Origin: Nitrosopumilaceae archaeon
GTDB lineage: Archaea; Thermoproteota; Nitrososphaeria; Nitrososphaerales; Nitrosopumilaceae
Direction: 5' to 3'
Assembly (NCBI GenBank): GCA_965208905.1
Contig: OZ242365.1
Span: 2,112,001-2,176,000 of the forward strand
DNA length: 64,000 nucleotides
Shown here: positions 19,060-39,310 of the stretch, in pieces
Layout: every line of letters begins with the position of its first letter
How positions within the stretch are numbered: the first letter of the stretch is position 1
Notes under the pieces: generated by a model
What the model was told of the DNA's origin: nothing
Database searches by the model: none
The model's input: the letters and a program-made list of their open reading frames with translations, nothing else
Position numbers and translations under genes: made by a program

Positions 19060-20691
19060 CTACCTCCAAACACTAACCATTCCAAACGCTTCATTTAGCA
19101 CTCTTTCAATCTCCAATTCATTGGCTTCGCCGCCAGAGCTACTTTCTTGGAGTTTCGACTCAACCAATTCGAGCACGATTTTAGTTTTGGTTTTTCCTAT
19201 AACACGGAAAAGCCCGTTATGATATTTGGTCCCGTAGGCATCCTCAATTGCTTTAATGAGTCCTTTTTTGGGTTGCTCTTGTTTTGCTATTTCATCATCA
19301 GATACGCTTTGTCCATACTTCTTTAGGTGAGAATTTATCAGATTGATTATAGACTCTCGCTCAAAATTGTCTCCTTCAAAGCTGGTGTTCCATATGTGGT
19401 GTTTAAATTCCCCGCCAAATCTCTGTTGTATTCGTCTAAGCTCGGTTTTCCAGTTCAACTCATCATCAGCAATCAAGTATATTGCAATCGAGTCTATGCG
19501 AGCAGATTGAATTATAAAATCAATGTTGTTGGCAATCATGTTGGTTACACCTTTTCTATTAACTATCCTCACAACGTCATCATCAAGACTGATCCCACGT
19601 TTTTTACAAATTTTTTTGATTACCGCCTCTTCCGTTTTACCCTCTACCAAGAGGTAAAGTCTGGTTGAAGTATCCTGTACAAAATACCGAACTATTGCCT
19701 GTTTGGTCTTGTGCGTCTTATAGTCGAATGGTTTCGAATACACGCGCTCTTTCCATTCGGCATTATCAAAGGGCATATTCGGAACACCGGTCTTCCCATC
19801 CAACTCGTGCAGAAACAACGCCAGCATCCGCGCAGCCGTGTAGTATAACTGCGCAGTGTAAGCATCCCCTTTTATTTTCTCTACGACTGATGGTCGCATA
19901 ATTCTGATCAGATCATACCATTCCATTAATGGATCAAGGAAACGTACCTGCGCGTCAAACCGATTAAGAGTACGACGAACTTGTTCTATTGGAACCCCGA
20001 TATCTTCCAAAAGATCGCTGACACTAAAACTGTTTCTCCACTCTAACCACATCTCTTGGAAGCGCTTGATGCCAACGGTAAGAGGGAACGGTATGGAATT
20101 GTAAACGTAAACTGAATAGCGTTCCTCCAATAGCATTAGCATTCCTATATCTTTGATTATATCTAGCTGCGATGAGTTAAACCAGTCGTCTCTCAACATG
20201 TTAGTCTCAACATTGTTCATCACTTGTTTAAGGTCTGATTTAGTGTATGAATCAAAGTATAAAAAGCGAACTTCTTTGAAATGAAATATGTTCTTGACTT
20301 GAAGGATTTGGAATTTGTGATAAAAGAGCAGTTTTTTGTCGCGTTTTAAGCTTTTGGGCTCGGACTTGAAATTACTCCACGGTTCAAAGTCTCCGACCTG
20401 TGGAAGCTCTATATGCCCAGCTGCATAGAATTCCTGGATGGCATCAAGTCCATAATACAGATCTCCACGCCGCTGCTGTTCGGGCAAAACCAGCCGGAAA
20501 GCCGGCTGGAGCCACCCTTCACGTTCAAAGCTTTCCAAATCTTCTTCTCTAATTCTGATCCCATGTTTCTCTAGCAAACGGACGAATCCATGTGGTTGTT
20601 CAAAGTCGCCATGCATGTATGGCCGCATCATTTTTTTCCGGATGTACGGCGAGAGTCCAGCATCCATGTCATGGAGAAGCGTATGAGGCAA
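19060..20691 (-). CDS. Hypothetical protein with a C-terminal OLD-like TOPRIM domain
   Basis: 'LLVEGKTEE', 'VNRKG', 'IADDE', 'SFE'; the N-terminal ~340 aa are unassigned. Confidence 0.65.
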   Translation of the reverse strand: MPHTLLHDMDAGLSPYIRKKMMRPYMHGDFEQPHGFVRLLEKHGIRIREEDLESFEREGWLQPAFRLVLPEQQRRGDLYYGLDAIQEFYAAGHIELPQVGDFEPWSNFKSEPKSLKRDKKLLFYHKFQILQVKNIFHFKEVRFLYFDSYTKSDLKQVMNNVETNMLRDDWFNSSQLDIIKDIGMLMLLEERYSVYVYNSIPFPLTVGIKRFQEMWLEWRNSFSVSDLLEDIGVPIEQVRRTLNRFDAQVRFLDPLMEWYDLIRIMRPSVVEKIKGDAYTAQLYYTAARMLALFLHELDGKTGVPNMPFDNAEWKERVYSKPFDYKTHKTKQAIVRYFVQDTSTRLYLLVEGKTEEAVIKKICKKRGISLDDDVVRIVNRKGVTNMIANNIDFIIQSARIDSIAIYLIADDELNWKTELRRIQQRFGGEFKHHIWNTSFEGDNFERESIINLINSHLKKYGQSVSDDEIAKQEQPKKGLIKAIEDAYGTKYHNGLFRVIGKTKTKIVLELVESKLQESSSGGEANELEIERVLNEAFGMVSVWR

Positions 20692-24049: not shown

Positions 24050-25297
24050 TTAAGGTACTCCATAATTATTGATCCGCTTTTCTAATTGACTGTATTGTCT
24101 TTGTAATATGCTATCATCAATTATTTCTAAATTACATTTGGCAAGTTGAGCTAATGGTGATTTGCCGCCATTAATTTCTAGACACTTTTTTAGGCCAATA
24201 TACATATCCACGGCATGATTTCTTATAACATGGTGCTTTTTTATTAAATTGGCGCAATTATCTCGGTCTAAGAACGTTGGTGCAAGATCAGGATGAATTA
24301 GATATTTCCAAAATTCAACACAATCAATAAGGATTCTAAATGAATTTTTTCTTACGGACTTAAGTTTATTCACTGAGAGTGCCATCACATTATCATTGTA
24401 AGTACGTTCCAGATTCTCACCTTGATTTATTGTATAAAGTGAAAGAATTCGAACAAAACATGCCATGCATAACCCACACATTTTTGAAATTCCTTGTGAG
24501 GTGGAACAGGACCATGTGTGCTTGATTGATTCAGGCTTATTTGCAGCGAGAATAACTTCGGATTTTGTATAGTTAAAAAATGGTGTTTGAATTTCTATTT
24601 TTTGCCCAAAAATGTTTTCAAAAATTTTTGCCCAGCCCGTAATCATGGCCGGGTCTGTTGTTCGTGTAGGCGCAACTCGCATAGATACAGGGTAATTTAT
24701 CATAAATGGGCCATTTTCCGGTATCACAACCTGCCCAATATTGTATTCCGAGGCTAAGCATAACAATGTAGTTAGAAAAACAACTCCTCGCACATGTAAA
24801 AGTGGGATGTCTGTCGCACTCTTTAGCCTTAAATTTGTTTCAACCATCTTGTGATTATTAGGCAAACATTTTTTATGAACATCCCTAGCAACTTTTTGCA
24901 TACGTGAGCTTGTTATCGTATGACTAAGCAGCCCTCTTTTTGTTATATTATTTGGCAGTAGTGGATATGACAAGCTATCTAGACCGCCCGAAAATAAACT
25001 AACAAAATCAAAAGAACTTTCAAATAGTCGCTGTTGTCTATTAGTTTTAGCCATCTTTAAAAATTTGAGTTTTATTTCTCTATCCGTAATTGTTTCATAA
25101 AAAAATTGAAGCTCATCTAAATTCTTTTGAAAGCGTTCGGGTTCTGATACTGGAACCACGACTTTCACAAAATTAGATTGTTTTGACTCTGCATAGTGAA
25201 CACACATGGCTAATTTTTGAAAATCGAGAAGCTCATCAGCAATTAAAAGTTTTATGTGTTTAGGTCTTAGTGAATTTTTTGGATTTTGATTTTTCAT
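24050..25297 (-). CDS. QueC-family PP-loop protein, QatC-like
   Basis: 'SLFSGGLDS', 'PENGPFMINYP....PTRTTDP', 'TPF..YTKSE', Zn site 'TWSC...CGLCMAC..R'; N-terminal extension 'VVVPVSEPERF' resembles QatC rather than housekeeping QueC. Confidence 0.85.
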   Translation of the reverse strand: MKNQNPKNSLRPKHIKLLIADELLDFQKLAMCVHYAESKQSNFVKVVVPVSEPERFQKNLDELQFFYETITDREIKLKFLKMAKTNRQQRLFESSFDFVSLFSGGLDSLSYPLLPNNITKRGLLSHTITSSRMQKVARDVHKKCLPNNHKMVETNLRLKSATDIPLLHVRGVVFLTTLLCLASEYNIGQVVIPENGPFMINYPVSMRVAPTRTTDPAMITGWAKIFENIFGQKIEIQTPFFNYTKSEVILAANKPESIKHTWSCSTSQGISKMCGLCMACFVRILSLYTINQGENLERTYNDNVMALSVNKLKSVRKNSFRILIDCVEFWKYLIHPDLAPTFLDRDNCANLIKKHHVIRNHAVDMYIGLKKCLEINGGKSPLAQLAKCNLEIIDDSILQRQYSQLEKRINNYGVP

Positions 25298-26120: not shown

Positions 26121-26921
26121 TCACCGTCGTTTTAAACGAGCTGGATGCCTGTACTCACGTTTGATTTCGCCGTTGCTTGCCAGACGGCTTTCAATTATCT
26201 CGCAATATCTGGGTTGTATCTCGCAGGTCAGGTAGTTCCTGCCCAAGTTCTTGGCTTGAACCACTTCCGAGCCGCTACCGCCAAATAGTACGAACACCGT
26301 ATCGCCCGGAACAGTGCAAGATTTGATGAGCAGCTCTGAGAGTGTCTCTGGTATCTGGCACGGGTGGTTTGTCTTTTGGCGAGACACGTTCTTAACCAAG
26401 TTTAAATTTATCCAAGAATAGAGCATGCGTCTCAGATGTCCCTGCCTTATTCGCTCCTTAATGCGCACATCATCCGGGTTCTGATATGGCTGTGCCACCT
26501 GTTCTTTGTAAAAGCGGTTGTTCCTAGATTTGGTGGCGTGGAGGATAGAGCGGTGGGCGGTGTTGAACCGGCGCCTGGAGTGGCCCACGTTGGTGTTATA
26601 GATCCAAACATAGTCGTGCACTGAGTAGACGTTCTCGTCAAGATAACTTACGCACAGATACGCGTTTTGCTTGGGATAGTTGATGAAAAACAGGTTACCG
26701 TCAGGCTGCAAGACGCGCAGGCACTCTTGCGCCAAATCCACGTACCATTTCACGTACTCATCCCAAGAAGACGTAAAGGCAGTTCCCTGATATTTGATGC
26801 CAACGTTGTAGTCTGGATCGCCATATATCATATCAATGGAATCATCCGGCAATCTCCTTAGCGTCGCCATTACGTCCTCGTTGACGACGCGGTTGCGGTA
26901 TTTTTTAGGTAGTGTGGTCAT
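26121..26921 (-). CDS. DNA N4-C/N6-A methyltransferase (beta class)
   Basis: Catalytic motif IV variant 'DPDY' precedes 'HPCQIP' and motif I 'LFGGSGS'. Confidence 0.88.
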   Translation of the reverse strand: MTTLPKKYRNRVVNEDVMATLRRLPDDSIDMIYGDPDYNVGIKYQGTAFTSSWDEYVKWYVDLAQECLRVLQPDGNLFFINYPKQNAYLCVSYLDENVYSVHDYVWIYNTNVGHSRRRFNTAHRSILHATKSRNNRFYKEQVAQPYQNPDDVRIKERIRQGHLRRMLYSWINLNLVKNVSRQKTNHPCQIPETLSELLIKSCTVPGDTVFVLFGGSGSEVVQAKNLGRNYLTCEIQPRYCEIIESRLASNGEIKREYRHPARLKRR

Positions 26922-26923
26922 CG

Positions 26924-27697
26924 CTACACCAGCACGTACTCGGCATTACGCCTGAGCACTATAGAACCGGGATCATGAGGGTCTTTGAACGTGTACAGAT
27001 ACAGACGTATCTTATTGCCGTGGCGCAGCAGGTAGCAGCACTCTATTGAATCGGCTTGCAGGTTATCTATCTTGTCTGCATAGTACCGATACGGGTGAAA
27101 AAGTTGAAAAACGTTAAAGTCGTGCGGTTCGCCGTTTTTTGCCTCGAATATGATTATCTGGCCTTGGAATTCCGTGGTGAGGTCAATCTCAAGTTGCAGT
27201 TTATTGCATTGAATGGTATCACCGCCTATGCTATAGTCAAACGTGGCAAACGTTCGGTGAGCGCCATAGACTTTCGGTGATGCGGTTATGTCCCTGTACA
27301 GGAAATCATGTATGATGCGCTGGTTGTATCCCACCGACAGGATGTTGCTCTCGCTGGTGTTCGTGTTGTCCAGTATTCCCGGCCGGTGGTACCACTGGAA
27401 CCTGTCATTGGCCGATACGGCTTCAAACTTATGGTAGCCGATATCAATGCCACGCACAAACTTGTGCATGCCGCGCCCCAAATGCACTACAAATACGTCG
27501 TCTGCTACCAACACATCGGGCAGCCTTGTCGTGCTGTCCAACTTGGTAACGTCATACTGATTGCTAAACTCAACTTTAGTGGACACGGCCTTGACATCTT
27601 TGTTGCTAAAAACAAAGTCACGCTTGGACTTGCACGCATCGTACAGCTTGGCAACCACCACGCCTTTTCTGCCTATGCGCTGTTGTACCATTGTCAA
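26924..27697 (-). CDS. Putative type II restriction endonuclease
   Basis: PD-(D/E)xK motif 'QLEID......IFEAKN'; directly upstream of the MTase. Confidence 0.75.
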   Translation of the reverse strand: MTMVQQRIGRKGVVVAKLYDACKSKRDFVFSNKDVKAVSTKVEFSNQYDVTKLDSTTRLPDVLVADDVFVVHLGRGMHKFVRGIDIGYHKFEAVSANDRFQWYHRPGILDNTNTSESNILSVGYNQRIIHDFLYRDITASPKVYGAHRTFATFDYSIGGDTIQCNKLQLEIDLTTEFQGQIIIFEAKNGEPHDFNVFQLFHPYRYYADKIDNLQADSIECCYLLRHGNKIRLYLYTFKDPHDPGSIVLRRNAEYVLV

Positions 27698-28387: not shown

Positions 28388-31300
28388 TTGGATGCCGACA
28401 GTTTTGGCAAAACACTTCAACACCTTCGTACCATTTGTAATGATGAGGGTAACACCAAGGGCAGCCTCTTCGAGAAGTTGGTGCGGTCGTTTCTAAAGAC
28501 TGATAATCTGTACGCCGACAGGTTTGTTGAAGTATACGCGTGGAAGGACTACCCGGGACGTAACGGGCGGGGTGACTTTGGCGTTGATTTGGTCGGTGTT
28601 GAGCAGGATGGCCAACTCTGTGCGATACAATGCAAGTTCTTTGACAAGACAACCCTCACCAAACGCAGCATAGACAGTTTCTTGGAGGCTGGTTCGCGCT
28701 CGGAGTTTGACTCCATGATGCTGGTGTATGTGGGTGGTGGCTATGGCAAAAACGTACAGGATGCGTTGGAGGGTCATGGGTGTAAGGTGTTGAACTTCGA
28801 GTCACTGTCCGAGAGTAACGTGGAGTGGCCTGATTTGGCCGCTGGCCTGACTGACATCAAGCCTAGAAAGGCACGCCCGTTGTGGGACCACCAGAAGGAG
28901 GCGATGAGTAATGTTATATCCAAACTGGAAAACAACAACCGTGGACAGTTGATAATGGCGTGTGGGACGGGTAAGACATTAACATCTTTACGGCTGGCCG
29001 AAAAAACAGTGGGTGAGGGCGGTCTTGTGTTGTATGCAGTACCATCCATATCACTAATGCGACAGGTGATACGTAACTGGGCCGGGGACCGAACCCTACA
29101 GCATGGATATGTGGGTGTTTGCTCCGACAACACGGTGTCCCGTGGCCAGACCGACATACCAATCATAGAGATGGAGATTGGTGTGAGTACAGATGAGGAT
29201 CGTATAGCCTCGGTGATGCGCCGGGACTCCTCTAAAATGACCGTTATATTCACAACATACCAGAGTATGGAGGTTATTGAGAAGGCCCAGAAGTTGTCCG
29301 GGGAACCATTCGACTTGGTATTATGTGATGAGGCTCACCGTACCACCGGCGTAGAGAAGGGGTCGGCATTCACTATCATACATGACGATGAGAAGATACA
29401 GGCGCGCAAACGAATCTACATGACAGCCACACCAAAAATATACAAGCGCGCGGTCAAGACAAAAGCCGCCAATGAGGATGTGGTATTATATTCTATGGAT
29501 GATGATTCGGTCGAGTCCAGGAGTGTATTTGGACCGGTAATGTTTAGACTGAGTTTCTCAGATGCCATAGACGCGAAACTACTGACCGACTATGATGTGT
29601 TGACGTTGGGTGTCTCTGAGGAATATGGTGGTAAGATACTACAAAAGATTGTGGAAACGACTGGTGATGATGGCGATATTAACCTGACGGACGCGGCCCG
29701 TATGGCTGGATTGTACCGCGTGTTGGAGCGGCCAGACCCAGACAATGACGTGTTGCCACTCCAAACCGCCATAGCGTATACCAACCGTATATCTGACTCA
29801 AAGCGGTTCGCCAACAGTTTCAAGAATCTTATGATGGAGCCTGCCGGTAGTGTAGAGTTTGCTTGTGATGCCGAACATGTAGACAGTACACAAAACTCCA
29901 CCGCACGGGATAAGGCGATGCAGTGGCTACGAGATTCTGACCAGGACTCCAATGAATGTCGTGTGGTGTCTAACGCCAAATGTTTGTCTGAGGGTGTGGA
30001 CGTACCGGCACTAAGTGCGATCACGTTCTTAAACCCCAAGTCGTCCGAGATCGACATAATACAGGCCATCGGTAGGGTGATGCGGAAGCATAAAGGTAAG
30101 GAGCGCGGTTATGTGATTATACCGTTGGGGATACCACCGGACACCGAGCCTGAGAAAATACTGAATAATGAAAAGTCATTTGGTGTGGTGTGGAATGTGT
30201 TGAGGGCGTTGCGGTCACATGATTCACGGCTGGACGTAGAGGTTAATACAGCAGATTTGAAGAAACAGTTGCCTAAACGCATAAAGTTCATTGGGATAGA
30301 TAGAGAGGGAAAACGCGTCGACAATGAGGAGGGAGGAAAATCATTCTCATTGGGTGAATTGGATGTGCCAGCCGATGCATTATATTCTCGTATAGTGGAG
30401 GAGGTAGGCGACAGGCAATATCTGGCGCGGTGGGCGAACGATGTCGCAGCCGTGGTGTCCCGTATACAAGAGCGTATTGGGGTAGTGGTTGCGGACGGTC
30501 CTGCGCGAGACAAATTCGGTGCGTACATGGTGGGTCTGCGCGATATAATACACGATACAATATCAGAGTCCGAGGGTATTGGGATGCTTGCCCAACACAT
30601 GGTGACCAGACGGATATTCGGTGCTATGTTTGGGACAGATAACTTTGCGCAATCCAATCCAGTGTCGGCTGCGCTCGACGCGGTACTGAATGAGTTGCGT
30701 GCGCATGGTCTGGATACTGAGCTACGTGATTTGGAAAAGTTCTACAACTCCATAGAGTTGCGTGTCGCTGGGTTGGACTCACATGATGCCCGGCAGCGCG
30801 TTATATCTGAACTATACGGGACATTCTTCAAGAAGGCATTTTCCAAGATGGCTGACCGACTGGGGATAGTGTATACACCAACTGAAGTAGTAGATTTCAT
30901 ACTGCGGTCAGTTGACCATGTGCTGCGGGAGAACTTTGGAAGGGGACTGACCGACGAAGGGGTGAATGTGATAGACCCATTCACAGGTGCCGGTACGTTC
31001 ATTGCGCGTATGATGTCCAAGGATTTGGACTTGATACGGGATGAGGATATTGAGCGAAAGTATGAATACGAGATATTCGCCAACGAGATTGTTTTACTGG
31101 CGTATTATATCGCGGCGGTCAACTGCGAGTCCATGTATGGCCAGCGTACCGGGTCTTTCAAGCAGTTCGAGGGACTGTCATTTACGGATACGTTCAGCCC
31201 TGGTAACTTGGATGAGCACACCGGTGACGTGATGGCCGGGCCCAAGAAACGCATCAGGAGGCAGCGGGAGGCGAAGATTACGTGTATAGTGGGCAATCCA

Positions 31301-32515
31301 CCCTATTCGGCGGGGCAAAAGTCGGCTAATGAGGATAACAAGAACGTAAAATACCCTGCCATAGAGGGTCGTGTCAAGGACACATACATTAGGATGGCAC
31401 CTAAAGGGAATCAGGTATCATTATACAACTCATACATTAAGGCTCTACGGCAGGCATCTGACCGTATAGGTGAGTCTGGTGTGATAGGGTTCATCACACC
31501 CTCTGCATATATCACCGGAATTGCCGAGGCCGGAATACGTGCCTGTCTGTATGAGGAGTTTACTGATGTGTATTGTTTGGATTTACTTGGTCAAAGAGGA
31601 ATGAAAAATAATGGTAATAGTATATTTGGGAATAGTGGTAATGAAGGCGGTATAACTGTTGGAGTTGCCATAACCATACTGGTTAAGAACCCACGAAAGA
31701 GTGGATGTACTATCCATTACAGCAAACTACCAACAAACGATTTTTACTGTGAGGAAAAACGTGCTAGGGTAAAGCAGTTGGGCCTTGTGGCCAACATAAC
31801 AGACTGGCAACCAATAACCCCAAACAGGTACCACGACTGGTTAGACCAGCGTGGTGAGGCAGACGAATCATGGCAGAAGTATTTGCCCATTGGTAGTAAA
31901 GATGCCAAACGCGGGAAAACTAACAAGGTTATGTTCAGTACATATTCGCGTGGACTTGCCACAGCTCGAGATGGCTGGGTCTACAACACGTCAAGAACAA
32001 AACTTACCGAAAACATGAAGCGACATATTGACTATTGTAACACACAGGACATTGACAACTTCACAATAGACCCAAAGCAGGCGAAATATAATACGGAGCT
32101 CGCAATCGAACTCAAAAAACTCCACAAACAGAACACAGTACCCACGTTGAACGAGTCGCATATACGAACGGCGCTGTTCCGCCCATTCCTCAAACAAAAC
32201 TTGTATTTTGACCCGACATTCATTGCAGCCAAGTACAAGATTCCCAAGTTCTTCCCGCATGGCGACGTGAAGAACCCCACCATCATGGTTCCCAACAAAA
32301 CCAAAGGAGAATTCTCCACGATAGTCATGGACCGCACACCGGACCTGCAAAACGTCGTGAACGGGCAGGCATTCCCCTTGAAGGCAAAGATACAAAACCA
32401 TGAAAATGTACGTCGGGTAGGAAGACTCCAGACTCCAGACTCCAGACTCCAGACTCCAGACTCCAGACTCCAGACTCCAGACTCCAGACTCCAGACTCAG
32501 AGAATCTGTCAATAA
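28388..32515 (+). CDS. Type ISP restriction-modification enzyme (nuclease-helicase-MTase-TRD), truncated at a tandem repeat
   Basis: Mrr-like 'D.GVDLV...IQCK', helicase 'MACGTGKT', 'DEAH', 'TATP', 'QAIGRVMR', MTase 'DPFTGAGTF' and 'GNPPY', TRD 'ATARDGWVYN'. Confidence 0.92.
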   Translation: MDADSFGKTLQHLRTICNDEGNTKGSLFEKLVRSFLKTDNLYADRFVEVYAWKDYPGRNGRGDFGVDLVGVEQDGQLCAIQCKFFDKTTLTKRSIDSFLEAGSRSEFDSMMLVYVGGGYGKNVQDALEGHGCKVLNFESLSESNVEWPDLAAGLTDIKPRKARPLWDHQKEAMSNVISKLENNNRGQLIMACGTGKTLTSLRLAEKTVGEGGLVLYAVPSISLMRQVIRNWAGDRTLQHGYVGVCSDNTVSRGQTDIPIIEMEIGVSTDEDRIASVMRRDSSKMTVIFTTYQSMEVIEKAQKLSGEPFDLVLCDEAHRTTGVEKGSAFTIIHDDEKIQARKRIYMTATPKIYKRAVKTKAANEDVVLYSMDDDSVESRSVFGPVMFRLSFSDAIDAKLLTDYDVLTLGVSEEYGGKILQKIVETTGDDGDINLTDAARMAGLYRVLERPDPDNDVLPLQTAIAYTNRISDSKRFANSFKNLMMEPAGSVEFACDAEHVDSTQNSTARDKAMQWLRDSDQDSNECRVVSNAKCLSEGVDVPALSAITFLNPKSSEIDIIQAIGRVMRKHKGKERGYVIIPLGIPPDTEPEKILNNEKSFGVVWNVLRALRSHDSRLDVEVNTADLKKQLPKRIKFIGIDREGKRVDNEEGGKSFSLGELDVPADALYSRIVEEVGDRQYLARWANDVAAVVSRIQERIGVVVADGPARDKFGAYMVGLRDIIHDTISESEGIGMLAQHMVTRRIFGAMFGTDNFAQSNPVSAALDAVLNELRAHGLDTELRDLEKFYNSIELRVAGLDSHDARQRVISELYGTFFKKAFSKMADRLGIVYTPTEVVDFILRSVDHVLRENFGRGLTDEGVNVIDPFTGAGTFIARMMSKDLDLIRDEDIERKYEYEIFANEIVLLAYYIAAVNCESMYGQRTGSFKQFEGLSFTDTFSPGNLDEHTGDVMAGPKKRIRRQREAKITCIVGNPPYSAGQKSANEDNKNVKYPAIEGRVKDTYIRMAPKGNQVSLYNSYIKALRQASDRIGESGVIGFITPSAYITGIAEAGIRACLYEEFTDVYCLDLLGQRGMKNNGNSIFGNSGNEGGITVGVAITILVKNPRKSGCTIHYSKLPTNDFYCEEKRARVKQLGLVANITDWQPITPNRYHDWLDQRGEADESWQKYLPIGSKDAKRGKTNKVMFSTYSRGLATARDGWVYNTSRTKLTENMKRHIDYCNTQDIDNFTIDPKQAKYNTELAIELKKLHKQNTVPTLNESHIRTALFRPFLKQNLYFDPTFIAAKYKIPKFFPHGDVKNPTIMVPNKTKGEFSTIVMDRTPDLQNVVNGQAFPLKAKIQNHENVRRVGRLQTPDSRLQTPDSRLQTPDSRLQTQRICQ
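32423..32498 (+). repeat. Heptanucleotide tandem repeat (AGACTCC)x10 plus AGACTC
   Basis: Counted directly; encodes RLQTPDS with no stop in any plus-strand frame. Confidence 0.97.
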
Positions 32516-32621
32516 TCGTACCGGACAAGATCAAAGGCGAGTTCTCGGTATTCATAACGGATATGACACCGGACTTGGAGGTGGTTCACCACGGCCAAGT
32601 ATTCCCGATGAAGGTGATGAC

Positions 32622-33281
32622 ATGAAGGATAACATCACCGAGTGGGCGCTGGAACAATACCGCCAAATATACAAAGATGACACAATAACCAAACAGGACA
32701 TCTTCTACTACACGTATGGTGTGCTGCACAGCCCAGGATTCCGGAAGAAGTACCAGGCGTTCTTGGTGCGCGGCATCCCCAACATTCCGTACGCCCCTAA
32801 CTTCCGTGCCTTTGAGAAGGCGGGTCGCGAGCTCGCATACCTACACCTCAATTACGAGACCTGCCCACGGTACGACTTGGGCGAACCACTACATCCAATA
32901 CCGAACCAACCCAAAAAGATAGCGTTTGGTAAGAAAGCCCGCGACGGGCCTGGCCCAGACACCGCAGACGACCAGAGCAAACTCCTGTTGGATGGTATAC
33001 TGGTGTATGACATTCTCCCTATTGTTACGTATCATGTAAATGGTAAGACCCCCATTGGTTGGTTTGAGGACAGATACGGCTTTAGTATAGACCACAAGGG
33101 TAAGTCGGGCAACACTAACTGGCCACTGGAAGGTGTCGGTGGAGATACGATACGCGCCATAATAGAACGGCTCGTATACGTTGGTGTGGAATCAGATAGA
33201 ATAATACAAAACCTGCCGGAGGAGTTTGAGATGGAAGTTAAACCACAGGAGCCTACCGGCTTGGACATGTATACTGCCTGA
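32622..33281 (+). CDS. C-terminal part of the type ISP specificity domain
   Basis: 'DNITEWAL...ITKQDIFYYTYGVLHSP.FRKKY...P.IP', 'AGRELA.LHLNYE', 'Y.VNGKTPI.W' typical of type ISP C-termini. Confidence 0.88.
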   Translation: MKDNITEWALEQYRQIYKDDTITKQDIFYYTYGVLHSPGFRKKYQAFLVRGIPNIPYAPNFRAFEKAGRELAYLHLNYETCPRYDLGEPLHPIPNQPKKIAFGKKARDGPGPDTADDQSKLLLDGILVYDILPIVTYHVNGKTPIGWFEDRYGFSIDHKGKSGNTNWPLEGVGGDTIRAIIERLVYVGVESDRIIQNLPEEFEMEVKPQEPTGLDMYTA

Positions 33282-33557: not shown

Positions 33558-34679
33558 ATGAAAGGCACCACGCGAGAACTCCGGGGCAGACAGATAAAGC
33601 CCGACCAAATCGCGAAGGTTGACGAACATACCTATACAGTAAGATCCCAGTCATCCGAAGGGGTATACGAGTTGATGTCCACCGAGCACGGGTGGATATG
33701 TAGTTGTCCGGACCACATGTACCGGGGTGTCTGTTGCAAGCATATTCACGCCGTTGAGATATCCAAGAGGATGCGCGAGGCCGTCCAGCAGGGGACCATT
33801 ATACGACAGGTGGACCTGGGTAGATGCAAGCGCTGCGACTCGGACAACATTGTCAAGCAGGGGATGCGCAAACTCAAGAGGGGACCCGTCCAAGGGTACA
33901 AGTGCAAGGACTGCGGTAAGCGGTTCACGCACAATCTCGGCTTTGAGAAAAAACATGCCACACCCGAACAGATTACACAAGCCGTAGATTTGCTGTTTAG
34001 TGGCTTGTCTAGCAGGAAGGTTGCCAAGAGCCTTGAGATGACAGGCTTCAAGATCACCTACAAGACCGTTCAGAATTGGGGTAAAGAGTATGCTGAGATA
34101 ATGGAACGGTTCGCCGACACCATCAAACCACAGGTCGGAGAGACTTGGCGCACTGATGAATTATATCTGAAAATCAAAGGTAACCGCAAATATCTATTTG
34201 CCATGCTTGATTCTGAAACTCGCTTTTGGATAGCCAAGATGGTAGCCACCCACAAAGGCAATGATGACGTCGCGCCGATGTTTAAACAGGCCAAGCGTGT
34301 AGCGGGTAAAGTCCCAACTACGCTGTATAGTGACAAGGCCGCCAACTTTCACAATGCATGGAAGAAGCAATACAAATCAAAGAACTTTCTGCACAAAGAG
34401 ACCGAGCATATACATGATGTTGCCTTTGATGGTATCCACCACAATAACCAAATGGAGAGCTTCAACGGAGCAACACTACGACACCGTGAAAAAGTAACCA
34501 GAGGGCTTAAGCGTGAGGACTCTGGTATTATTACTGGATTACGACTCTACCATAACTTTGTCAAACCACATGAAGGACTCCCAGACAAAATTACACCCGC
34601 CGAGGCCGCAGGTATTGCCGTAGAGGGAGATAACAAATACCTGACCCTCATTCGAGCCGCCGCAGAGTCGGCGACTTAA
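33558..34679 (+). CDS. IS6-family DDE transposase with N-terminal SWIM finger and zinc ribbon
   Basis: SWIM 'CSCPD......CKH', 'CKRC..CKDC', HTH, DDE 'WRTDELYLKIKG', 'YSDK', 'NNQMESFN'; intact ORF. Confidence 0.88.
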   Translation: MKGTTRELRGRQIKPDQIAKVDEHTYTVRSQSSEGVYELMSTEHGWICSCPDHMYRGVCCKHIHAVEISKRMREAVQQGTIIRQVDLGRCKRCDSDNIVKQGMRKLKRGPVQGYKCKDCGKRFTHNLGFEKKHATPEQITQAVDLLFSGLSSRKVAKSLEMTGFKITYKTVQNWGKEYAEIMERFADTIKPQVGETWRTDELYLKIKGNRKYLFAMLDSETRFWIAKMVATHKGNDDVAPMFKQAKRVAGKVPTTLYSDKAANFHNAWKKQYKSKNFLHKETEHIHDVAFDGIHHNNQMESFNGATLRHREKVTRGLKREDSGIITGLRLYHNFVKPHEGLPDKITPAEAAGIAVEGDNKYLTLIRAAAESAT

Positions 34680-34875: not shown

Positions 34876-34952
34876 GCCGCCCTAGCTCAGCGTGGTAGAG
34901 CAGCGGACTGTTAATCCGTTGGTCGACAGTTCAAGTCTGTCGGGCGGCGCCA
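34876..34952 (+). tRNA. tRNA-Asn(GTT), CCA encoded
   Basis: GCCGCCC/GGGCGGC acceptor stem, D loop 'TGGTA', anticodon arm GCGGA-CTGTTAA-TCCGT, T loop 'GTTCAAGTC'. Confidence 0.95.
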
Positions 34953-37850: not shown

Positions 37851-39310
37851 GGGAATTACATACAAAAGTACACAGCCTTGGGGTTCTGAGAGTCAGGTGG
37901 GTTTCGTGACTACGTCAATCTTCTTAAATACCAGTATACCGTATTACACATCATGATACGGATAGTCAAGGTACCGCTACGAAGAGATGTGTTGTTTGCA
38001 GAGTGGGCGCACCACACGAATCATGCGTCAAGATACGTATACAATCGCGCCGTCTCGGAGTATTTGTATAGTGAAAAGTACTTCAAGAGGGTTGTGGTGG
38101 ATATACTACACCCGTTCAAGTTACCCGGTAAGTCGAGTTTCACGACAGGTATGTTGGATGACTACTATCAGGCGTATGATTTTAGCCCGTCAAAGAGGGC
38201 ATTGAAGTATGGTATGTTCAAGCAGCTTACGGGGTGGCGCGCTGAACATACATGGCTACGCGAGTGCCCCATGGTGTTTGGCCGCGGTGCTATACAGGAT
38301 GCCTCGGTTGCATGTAGGAGGGTTGTAGAGGACAATTCAAACCATACACCGTACCGCCGCAAAGATGGCCGCATCATACTTAGTTCTATTACGCCACCCA
38401 TATGGAAAGACAATCATACGGTACGAATACCCGGATATGGTATTGTAAACACGGCAAAACCAATAGACGAAGCATGGGACATGCGCTCATTCAAGATAGT
38501 TGATGTTACAAAACATGTGGACAAGCATACAAAGCCATCTGATCACATGTTCGAGCTGCATATAGCCGTGTATACACCGGTAAAACCACACCGTAATACG
38601 GGTACAATACGCGGTGTGGACGTTGGCGGCAAGCACCTGGCGGTCACGGTAGACACTGATGGCAATATTGTGATACATAACACCAGACACAAAAAGATAC
38701 TGCGGGAGATTGACGCGCTCAAAAGCCTGCGTGACCATAAAAAGAAACATAGCCGGAAGTGGCATGTATTGAACGACCAAATCAAACGATTATACAGGAA
38801 GGCTGACGGCATTGCCGTGAATACCATAAACCAGACTGTATCACGTGTTGTACAGGGTACGGATGCCGTCATAGCCGAGATACTATCCATACAGGACATG
38901 ACCGCACATGGTGGGAACTACAAAAAACACATGAACCGTTCCATGCGGGAGAATAGGCTTGGCGAGTTCCTGCGGAAGTTGGCGCAGCGATGCGAAAAAG
39001 AAGGCATTCCATTGTGTGGGGTGATGGCCAACTATACAAGCCAGACGTGCCATGTGTGTGGTCATGTAGATTCGGAGTCGCGTATATCACGCGACCAGTT
39101 CATTTGCACTAATTGTACCAGAGTATTTCACGCGGACGTAAATGCCGCCTGGAATATTCTGTATCGGGTGGCGGGGAACGTCATCCTTAGACGGCCGGAG
39201 CATAAGGAGGGTTACAAGCCAACACCCACCATGCTCTATACTATACAACGAGGCCGTCAGAAAAGGCATGAGTGTACGGCTGAGGCTGTGTACTTTTGTA
39301 TATAATTCCC
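37851..39310 (+). mobile_element. Non-autonomous TIR element carrying tnpB
   Basis: 28-bp TIRs GGGAATTA(C/T)ATACAAAAGTACACAGCCT at 37851-37878 and 39283-39310; 8-bp TSD TATTAAAT at 37843-37850 and 39311-39318. Confidence 0.85.
37953..39305 (+). CDS. tnpB: RNA-guided endonuclease TnpB
   Basis: RuvC I 'GVDVG', RuvC II 'IAEIL', Zn finger 'TSQTCHVCG...CTNC', RuvC III 'ADVNAAWNI'. Confidence 0.9.
   Translation: MIRIVKVPLRRDVLFAEWAHHTNHASRYVYNRAVSEYLYSEKYFKRVVVDILHPFKLPGKSSFTTGMLDDYYQAYDFSPSKRALKYGMFKQLTGWRAEHTWLRECPMVFGRGAIQDASVACRRVVEDNSNHTPYRRKDGRIILSSITPPIWKDNHTVRIPGYGIVNTAKPIDEAWDMRSFKIVDVTKHVDKHTKPSDHMFELHIAVYTPVKPHRNTGTIRGVDVGGKHLAVTVDTDGNIVIHNTRHKKILREIDALKSLRDHKKKHSRKWHVLNDQIKRLYRKADGIAVNTINQTVSRVVQGTDAVIAEILSIQDMTAHGGNYKKHMNRSMRENRLGEFLRKLAQRCEKEGIPLCGVMANYTSQTCHVCGHVDSESRISRDQFICTNCTRVFHADVNAAWNILYRVAGNVILRRPEHKEGYKPTPTMLYTIQRGRQKRHECTAEAVYFCI

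Follow-up and report, generated by a model that had tools for sequence, protein, structure and literature searches.

The window analyzed here is a stretch of 64,000 nucleotides (nt) from a Nitrosopumilaceae archaeon (assembly GCA_965208905.1, contig OZ242365.1, positions 2,112,001 to 2,176,000 of the forward strand), and all positions below are those of the window unless the genome is named. The genome is a single contig of 2.21 Mb with 45.6% G+C, and the window includes an archaeal RNase P RNA. Judged from its sequence, the gene of interest encodes a Type ISP restriction-modification (R-M) enzyme that has intact catalytic motifs and a target-recognition domain (TRD) split by a tandem repeat. 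Tandem Repeats Finder reported only one array in the 64-kb window, a perfect heptamer repeat on the plus strand at 32423..32498 (unit AGACTCC, period 7, 10.9 copies, 100% matches), and this array had the second-highest score among the short-unit repeats of the whole 2.21-Mb genome. The array is located inside the TRD, near the 3' end of a plus-strand open reading frame (ORF) of 1,375 codons (28388..32515) that terminates at the TAA at 32513-32515. The next ORF, of 219 codons (32622..33281, plus strand), is in a different frame.

Pfam searches identified in the 1,375-residue product, from the N terminus, an Mrr-type nuclease (Mrr_cat_2, residues 37-152, E value of 3.8e-24), an SF2 helicase-like ATPase (ResIII, 4e-23; Helicase_C, 1.6e-08), a coupler between the ATPase and the methylase (ISP_coupler, residues 678-799, 5.6e-32), a gamma-class N6-adenine methylase (N6_Mtase, 4.8e-07), and the first half of the TRD (Type_ISP_C, profile positions 2-156). 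The translation contains the Walker A motif GTGKT and DEAH of the ATPase as well as DPFTGAGTF (FxGxG type) and GNPPYS (NPPY) of the methylase. The 219-residue product matched the remaining part of the TRD profile (Type_ISP_C, positions 167-320), which corresponds to LlaBIII residues 1384-1576 and comprises the core helices and the "guide" subdomain (PMC4872093; statements about published systems, here and below, refer to the passages cited). The two Type_ISP_C halves are thus in different frames in the present allele and form one polypeptide only at 9 or 12 repeat units.

Segment A (TIMVPNKTKGEFSTIVMDRTPDLQNVVNGQAFP; 32279..32377, plus strand) is in the frame of the N-terminal ORF, and its last 13 codons (PDLQNVVNGQAFP; 32339-32377) align with TRD Loop VI of LlaBIII and LlaGI (PMC4872093). 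The repeat itself is open in three frames and reads RLQTPDS in each. It is followed by a dual-coding stretch at 32499..32621 (plus strand). In frame Y, with codons from 32500, this stretch encodes ENL, segment B (SIIVPDKIKGEFSVFITDMTPDLEVVHHGQVFP; 32509-32607), which is a diverged copy of segment A, and MKVMT. In frame Z, one base before frame Y and with codons from 32499, it is a stop-free linker of 41 codons (RESVNN...DEGDD), while the third frame stops at 32513-32515. The C-terminal ORF starts at an ATGA (32622..32625, plus strand) in which its start codon overlaps the TGA stop of frame Y, and 3 nt 5' of the ATG is an AGGTGAT (32612..32618, plus strand), the complement of the 16S rRNA 3' end in this same genome. 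This Shine-Dalgarno (SD)-like match may have a role in initiation.

To follow the reading frames, the number of units was varied from 5 to 14 by script and the products were translated; the outcome cycled with a period of three. With the present 10 units, and likewise with 7 or 13, the stop follows ...QTQRICQ (truncated phase). Alleles of 9 units, and likewise of 6 or 12, read ...RESVNNRTGQDQRRVLGIHNGYDTGLGGGSPRPSIPDEGDD-MKDNIT... and give a fused protein of approximately 1,628 residues (fused phase). With 8 units, and likewise with 5, 11, or 14, translation ends in ...ENLSIIVPDKIKGEFSVFITDMTPDLEVVHHGQVFPMKVMT at the TGA at 32623-32625, over the ATG at 32622-32624 (split phase). The original prediction, made from the letters of the window, had named the same three outcomes, namely, a stop at 32515 at the present length, a stop-free passage from RESVNN...DEGDD into MKDNIT at 32622 with 9 or 12 units, and a second TRD-like segment closed by the overlapping TGA with 8 or 11, and the script reproduced each of them.

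Recurrence of the layout and selection on two frames

Among 401 Nitrosopumilaceae genomes, 33 contained relatives of the C-terminal half of the gene (C-half), whereas 344 genomes from other families of the phylum contained none. Sixty-eight loci were retrieved, and the 67 that could be analyzed were sorted by a segment motif. Twenty-two loci, spread over 13 Nitrosopumilaceae genomes and four genera, were of a switch type with the order segment A, repeat, segment B, NTGA, and C-half, in which B was always in frame -1 relative to C. Another 22 were canonical, with a single in-frame segment 63 to 81 nt 5' of the C-half and without a frameshifting repeat. B was in the +1 frame in five loci and in frame with C in three, and 15 loci were left unclassified by the segment motif.

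A perfect repeat of at least 10 nt occurred at the same position in 20 of the 22 switch-type loci. These loci used 11 distinct units with lengths of 1, 2, 7, 8, or 11 nt, none of which is a multiple of 3, and every unit was stop free in three frames. A 5-nt unit was found in one of the +1 variants, and the sole repeat in a canonical gene was a trinucleotide. All three phases occurred among the switch-type loci, with nine loci fused, six split (reading B), six truncated, and one lacking segment A. Additionally, tract length differed between close relatives. A search of genome contigs with the C-half returned one locus, the orthologue in a sister species (G005), which has the same AGACTCC unit in 17.3 copies, compared with 10.9 in the window, and is in the split phase with both ORFs intact (1,382 and 216 residues, with a 4-nt overlap). 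Two copies from genome G003 that are 99.15% identical over 2,348 nt have 5.6 and 6.6 copies of an 8-nt unit, and one of them is fused while the other is truncated. The original prediction had proposed a three-state repeat switch, possibly with two active outputs, and the three-state design is supported by these comparative data, since all three states exist naturally among its relatives.

The junction with the C-half was strictly kept. In all 22 switch-type loci the B frame ends in a TGA that overlaps an in-frame start of the C-half (ATG in 21, GTG in 1). An SD-like match of at least 5 nt to the complement of the 16S rRNA 3' end was present 3 to 17 nt before this start in 17 of the 22 loci, and in 2 of 22 canonical genes at the equivalent place. 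In archaea as well as bacteria, ATGA overlaps mediate translational coupling by termination-reinitiation (PMC6728339, PMC10666635), and in the B phase the C-half would then be made as a separate chain of 219 residues.

Both frames of the dual-coding stretch are under selection. In pairwise comparisons, B differed by 0.238, 0.124, and 0.502 per site at positions 1, 2, and 3 of its own codons; both A (0.39, 0.29, and 0.65) and the canonical segment (0.40, 0.27, and 0.66) were less constrained. The ratio of nonsynonymous to synonymous differences in B (pN/pS, Nei-Gojobori) was 0.27 in frame Y and 2.17 in frame Z; thus, B is conserved as a protein, whereas the linker shows no conservation of sequence. 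What is kept in frame Z is its openness. Frame Z was stop free in 19 of 19 distinct B segments, whereas the corresponding frame was open in 2 of 21 segments from canonical genes and in 1 of 20 A segments; the third frame of the B segments had three to six stops in each. At third positions where a synonymous T would create a stop in frame Z, T was found at none of 118 at-risk sites in the switch-type loci; for comparison, it was found at 70 of 426 other sites and at 38 of 107 at-risk sites in canonical genes. The switch-type loci are relatives and such counts are not independent trials, but their third positions differ by about 50%. In two loci in which B is now in frame with C, the former Z frame carries a stop.

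Segment B is therefore under purifying selection in its own frame, and the linker frame is kept open by selection. The original prediction had allowed that the open 41-codon linker could be chance. That view is rejected because frame Z is open in 19 of 19 segments and no stop-creating T is present at any at-risk site. Its "second TRD-like segment" proved real, being under purifying selection in its own frame and ending in a stop that overlaps the start codon in 22 of 22 loci. The idea that gene conversion alone accounts for the conservation of B was rejected, given the 50% third-position divergence that accompanies the conserved protein. The recurrence of the layout in 22 related loci, together with these signatures of selection, is more than chance would be expected to produce, and the cassette shows cleanly how, in nature, a single piece of DNA can be selected in two frames for two different purposes.

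Several further observations were made on the related loci. In the +1 variants (L054, L058, L060, L071, and L031), in which B is in the +1 and not the -1 frame relative to the C-half, the stop of B lies 5 to 53 nt inside the C-half region, without a conserved ATG. One switch-type locus, L024 (G383), has 88.9 perfect copies (978 nt) of an 11-nt unit (AACCCACTCAG) located 118 to 1,096 nt before the C-half and open in three frames. G003, a 2.4-Mb metagenome-assembled genome (MAG) of the same genus, contained 17 C-half matches, some of them 2 to 3 kb apart on one strand. Its copies (e.g., L006, L015, L019-L023, and L066-L070) are mutual mosaics with 95% identity in one part and 80% in another, and L020 is a C-half copy without an N-terminal part; by sequence they look like recombining cassettes or strain variants. 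The archaeon studied here also has a second Type ISP-like locus, outside the window (genome positions 1532374-1538499, minus strand), in which a PLD nuclease with an SNF2 N-terminal part, Helicase_C, and a coupler-methylase-TRD part are in three overlapping frames. A (GA)26 tract is found there at the matching point of the TRD, followed by B-ATGA-C, and the locus is currently in the fused frame.

A search for homologues of the Z linker, limited to longer proteins (13 candidates), returned two proteins, both natural fused-phase enzymes, a number too small to describe a distribution outside the family. In a search of sequencing runs, four runs of one sample contained 0.96 to 0.99 of the search words, one sponge-metagenome run contained 0.30, and seven runs contained at most 0.12, and such small shares are no evidence of habitat. 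The 22-nt left flank of the repeat (32400-32421, ...ENVRRVG) had two exact contig matches in a metagenome scan (L074 and L075), which were in adenylyl-sulfate-kinase-like genes with no further similarity and were taken as chance.

Copies of Loop VI and structural models

The N-half of the TRD aligned with LlaBIII residues 1188-1366 (E value of 1.4e-18) and, as stated above for the window, the C-half with LlaBIII 1384-1576. Within the N-half, the PDL-Q of copy A was aligned with PDV-N1360 of LlaBIII, and HVIGGQ of LlaGI (1368-1373 after the construct offset) aligned with the loop end. TRD Loop VI was defined by Kulkarni et al. as residues 1365-1374, and target position +3 is read by H1368, G1372, and Q1373 in LlaGI and by N1360 in LlaBIII (PMC4872093). 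From this alignment with Loop VI it follows that A and B are two versions of a strand-loop-strand element with a base-reading loop.

The loops of the two copies are different in the window, with QNVVNGQ in A and EVVHHGQ in B, and they were unlike in all 19 loci compared. Certain loop types (EVVHHG, HIHEAS, QVITNG, NNIAPS, HVIAQS, QLNKNG, and HILEAN) recurred among the loci and were also found in canonical genes. Where A was of the EVxHHG type (L017 and L018), B was of another type. A change of specificity between the fused and split phases is thus plausible from the loop sequences.

We modeled the TRD of a natural fused-phase enzyme (L007) with AlphaFold2 and an alignment of 38 natural sequences; this locus matches the window in the types of its A and B loops, and its repeat is likewise a heptamer. 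The model had a mean predicted local distance difference test (pLDDT) value of 80.9 and a predicted template modeling score (pTM) of 0.79. Only residues 166-232, which are the repeat peptide and the Z linker, were below a pLDDT of 50, and copy A was modeled as ordered strands. The top Foldseek matches of the model were LlaGI (E value of 1.8e-24), LlaBIII, and DrdV. The cassette suggests that a Type ISP TRD can be split after Loop VI or can tolerate a 67-residue insertion there, which would be useful for specificity engineering.

For the two-piece form, the natural halves of the split-phase G005 orthologue were modeled as a complex. The median score of three runs was 0.66, compared with 0.00 for the best of three controls; 58 of 80 solved complexes reached this mark, as did 2 of 110 mismatched pairs. 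Agreement in contacts among the three runs was 29% or more, with a pLDDT of at least 80 for the partner. Homologues made as one chain have already been solved, and the pass may reflect likeness to them only.

The proposed switch and competing readings

We consider it likely that a conserved three-phase switch is built into the TRD of this single-polypeptide Type ISP enzyme, with the heptamer as its mutable element. The sequences show the anatomy, its conservation, and selection on both overlapping frames; we infer switching in living populations, reinitiation, activity of a two-piece enzyme, and silence of the third phase. Gain or loss of units by slipped-strand mispairing would shift translation after segment A among three frames. 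In frame Z, the DNA of segment B would be read as a disordered linker of about 41 residues leading into the C-half, giving a one-piece enzyme with copy A as its Loop VI. In frame Y, segment B would be read as a second, different Loop VI hairpin, and translation would stop at the TGA over the C-terminal ATG; the C-half would then be made separately by termination-reinitiation, with help from the SD-like motif, and would dock onto the N-terminal protein to form a two-piece enzyme. In the third frame, a stop 5 codons past the tract and about 100 nt before the ATG would give a truncated enzyme that is presumably off. The allele in the window is currently in this third phase.

The copies of Loop VI allow a further step, which we propose only tentatively and think somewhat more doubtful than not. 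The repeat may choose between two DNA specificities in addition to an OFF state, so that the fused enzyme would use A only, while in the split form B would occupy the loop position beside the separate C-half and a different motif would be methylated and restricted. If this is true, one stretch of 123 nt serves both as a spacer and as an alternative recognition module, picked by the reading frame.

Several points weigh against a three-phase switch of this kind. The unit count comes from the consensus of one single-contig assembly, in which a miscount by one unit is possible. The 22 switch-type loci are related, and several are paralogues within the MAG G003, so that the counts overstate their independence. 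We know of no Type ISP enzyme that works as two chains, although no search was aimed at one. In the best complex model, the confident contacts of the N-part end at residue 146, in the first strand of copy A, and copy B (residues 233-265) had no confident placement, with only eight alignment rows covering it; this model cannot distinguish A from B at the loop position. The SD-like motif might let the C-half be made in every phase, in which case the truncated phase could assemble an A-type two-piece enzyme and would not be off. Finally, the 9:6:6 distribution of phases is also what neutral drift of the frame would give.

The most serious alternative, although an unlikely one in our judgment, is plain ON/OFF phase variation, in which the fused phase alone would be active, both other frames would be OFF, and B would be a functionless relic of duplication. 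Reviews describe this as the commonest behavior of repeat tracts in bacterial R-M genes. The fused phase was the most frequent (9 of 21 loci) and folds as a complete TRD, and the missing placement of B in the complex model is consistent with this explanation as well. However, conservation is stronger in B than in A or the canonical segment, and substitutions in B follow the third-position pattern of its own frame. A relic would not retain these features, the start overlap in 22 of 22 loci, and the SD-like motif in 17 of 22 over four genera at 50% third-position divergence.

Compared with plain ON/OFF variation, a specificity toggle without a true OFF state is less probable still. Here the C-half would be produced from its own SD-like motif and ATG in all phases, and the repeat would decide only whether B is appended. 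The motif that precedes the ATG does match the 16S 3' end of the genome, and the truncated product retains the whole of segment A. However, equivalence of the truncated and fused products would leave an open Z frame without any selective advantage, and in fact this frame was open in all 19 segments and free of T at the 118 at-risk sites. The strict 4-nt overlap, kept in 22 of 22 loci, suggests that the C-half depends on upstream termination.

That the gene is broken or the tract misassembled, i.e., that the true tract is fixed in frame or that the locus is a decaying pseudogene, we regard as very improbable. The reliance on one consensus of one assembly and the truncated frame of one-third of the related loci would fit such an explanation. 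However, the upstream ORF of 1,375 residues is intact and has kept its catalytic motifs, while a pseudogene would gather other lesions, and the layout was found in all three phases over 13 genomes, with selection on two frames and an intact split-phase orthologue. Recoding would mean that the fused protein arises from the present allele because ribosomes undergo programmed frameshifting, or transcription slips, on the repeat. It agrees with the two readable frames downstream of the repeat but has a negligible probability and was rejected, because no X XXY YYZ slippery heptamer can be seen from 32499 to 32625, the repeat units measure 2 to 11 nt and are not long A/T runs, and the upstream frame takes all three values among relatives, which fits changes of unit number in the DNA.

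Genomic surroundings and comparison with known systems

The three-phase switch that we favor is located in a neighborhood of defense and mobile-element genes (window positions 19060-39305). Upstream of the Type ISP gene are an OLD-like TOPRIM protein (19060-20691), a QueC-like protein (24050-25297), and an N6_N4 methylase with DUF6996/DUF6997 (26121-27697). An IS240/IS6-type DDE transposase (33558-34679) is immediately downstream, followed by a tRNA-Asn (34876-34952) and a TnpB-like ORF (37953-39305). Elsewhere in the same genome, a C13 tract (genome positions 1772125-1772137) separates a 151-codon ORF from a 372-codon N6_N4_Mtase-HNH ORF whose methylase match begins at profile position 46, and a G12 tract (654214-654225) is near the 5' end of a DndB ORF. 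By sequence, both loci are candidates for further repeat-switched defense genes. A perfect (GTAGT)62 array of 310 nt (1691070-1691379) lies between two minus-strand ORFs, approximately 300 nt upstream of the next start.

Repeat-switched R-M genes are well described in host-adapted bacteria, in which they include the phasevarions of Type III mod and Type I hsdM and hsdS genes (PMC5909438, PMC7383803), and the Type IIG enzyme Cj0031 of Campylobacter jejuni is likewise phase variable under the control of a repeat (PMC4889913). These systems and the archaeal locus have in common a repeat in the coding sequence, with a unit length not divisible by 3, whose number sets the frame. However, the bacterial genes are described in those sources as ON/OFF switches, whereas the archaeal repeat is in the TRD of a Type ISP enzyme and two of its three frames are under selection.

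The nearest precedent is NgoAV, a Type I system from Neisseria gonorrhoeae with a polyG switch. Depending on the length of this tract, which lies at the end of hsdS1, the outcome is a truncated subunit, a fused hsdS1-hsdS2 product with shifted specificity, or no active methylase (PMC9577141, citing Adamczyk-Poplawska 2011). As in the archaeal locus, a simple repeat in the gene that determines specificity has three outcomes set by tract length, two of which are active in NgoAV. In contrast to the archaeal locus, NgoAV is a bacterial, multisubunit Type I system with a homopolymer tract, and, as described in that source, it is without a second recognition loop in an overlapping frame, a selected open linker, or a stop-start overlap that feeds a half-domain.

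Other known systems share single features with the archaeal locus. LlaGI and LlaBIII (PDB 5ffj and 4xqk; PMC4872093) have the same domain order and TRD fold, and A and B align with their Loop VI strand-loop-strand, but each of these lactococcal enzymes is described as one continuous chain that has a single Loop VI and lacks a repeat. The shufflons and invertons of Type I hsdS genes (PMC7394358, PMC7672463) similarly offer a population-level choice of alternative recognition modules. That choice is made when duplicated hsdS genes recombine, either site-specifically or homologously, whereas the archaeal locus would make it by the choice of frame over one dual-coding cassette. ATGA coupling in general (PMC6728339, PMC10666635) involves the same 4-nt overlap of codirected ORFs that encode parts of one complex; in the archaeal locus, unlike in ordinary coupling, the overlap is reached in only one of the three frames set by the repeat.

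Our literature search found no description of repeat-driven phase variation for R-M genes of archaea or for Type ISP enzymes. Contingency loci in archaea are mentioned in passing, with citation of general reviews, in a preprint (PMC12633550), and a centenary review from 2025 names the archaeal distribution of such phase-variable loci as future work (PMC11868660). Repeat-driven phase variation of R-M genes has been regarded as a trait of host-adapted bacteria, and here it would be a conserved device in at least four genera of ammonia-oxidizing archaea. These archaea are globally important nitrifiers, and switching, if it is true, would provide bet hedging against viruses or epigenetic heterogeneity at the level of the population. 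Overall, the archaeal system stands apart from the known ones in being archaeal and of Type ISP and in combining a dual-coding cassette that contains a duplicated recognition loop with a selected spacer frame and a stop-start overlap.

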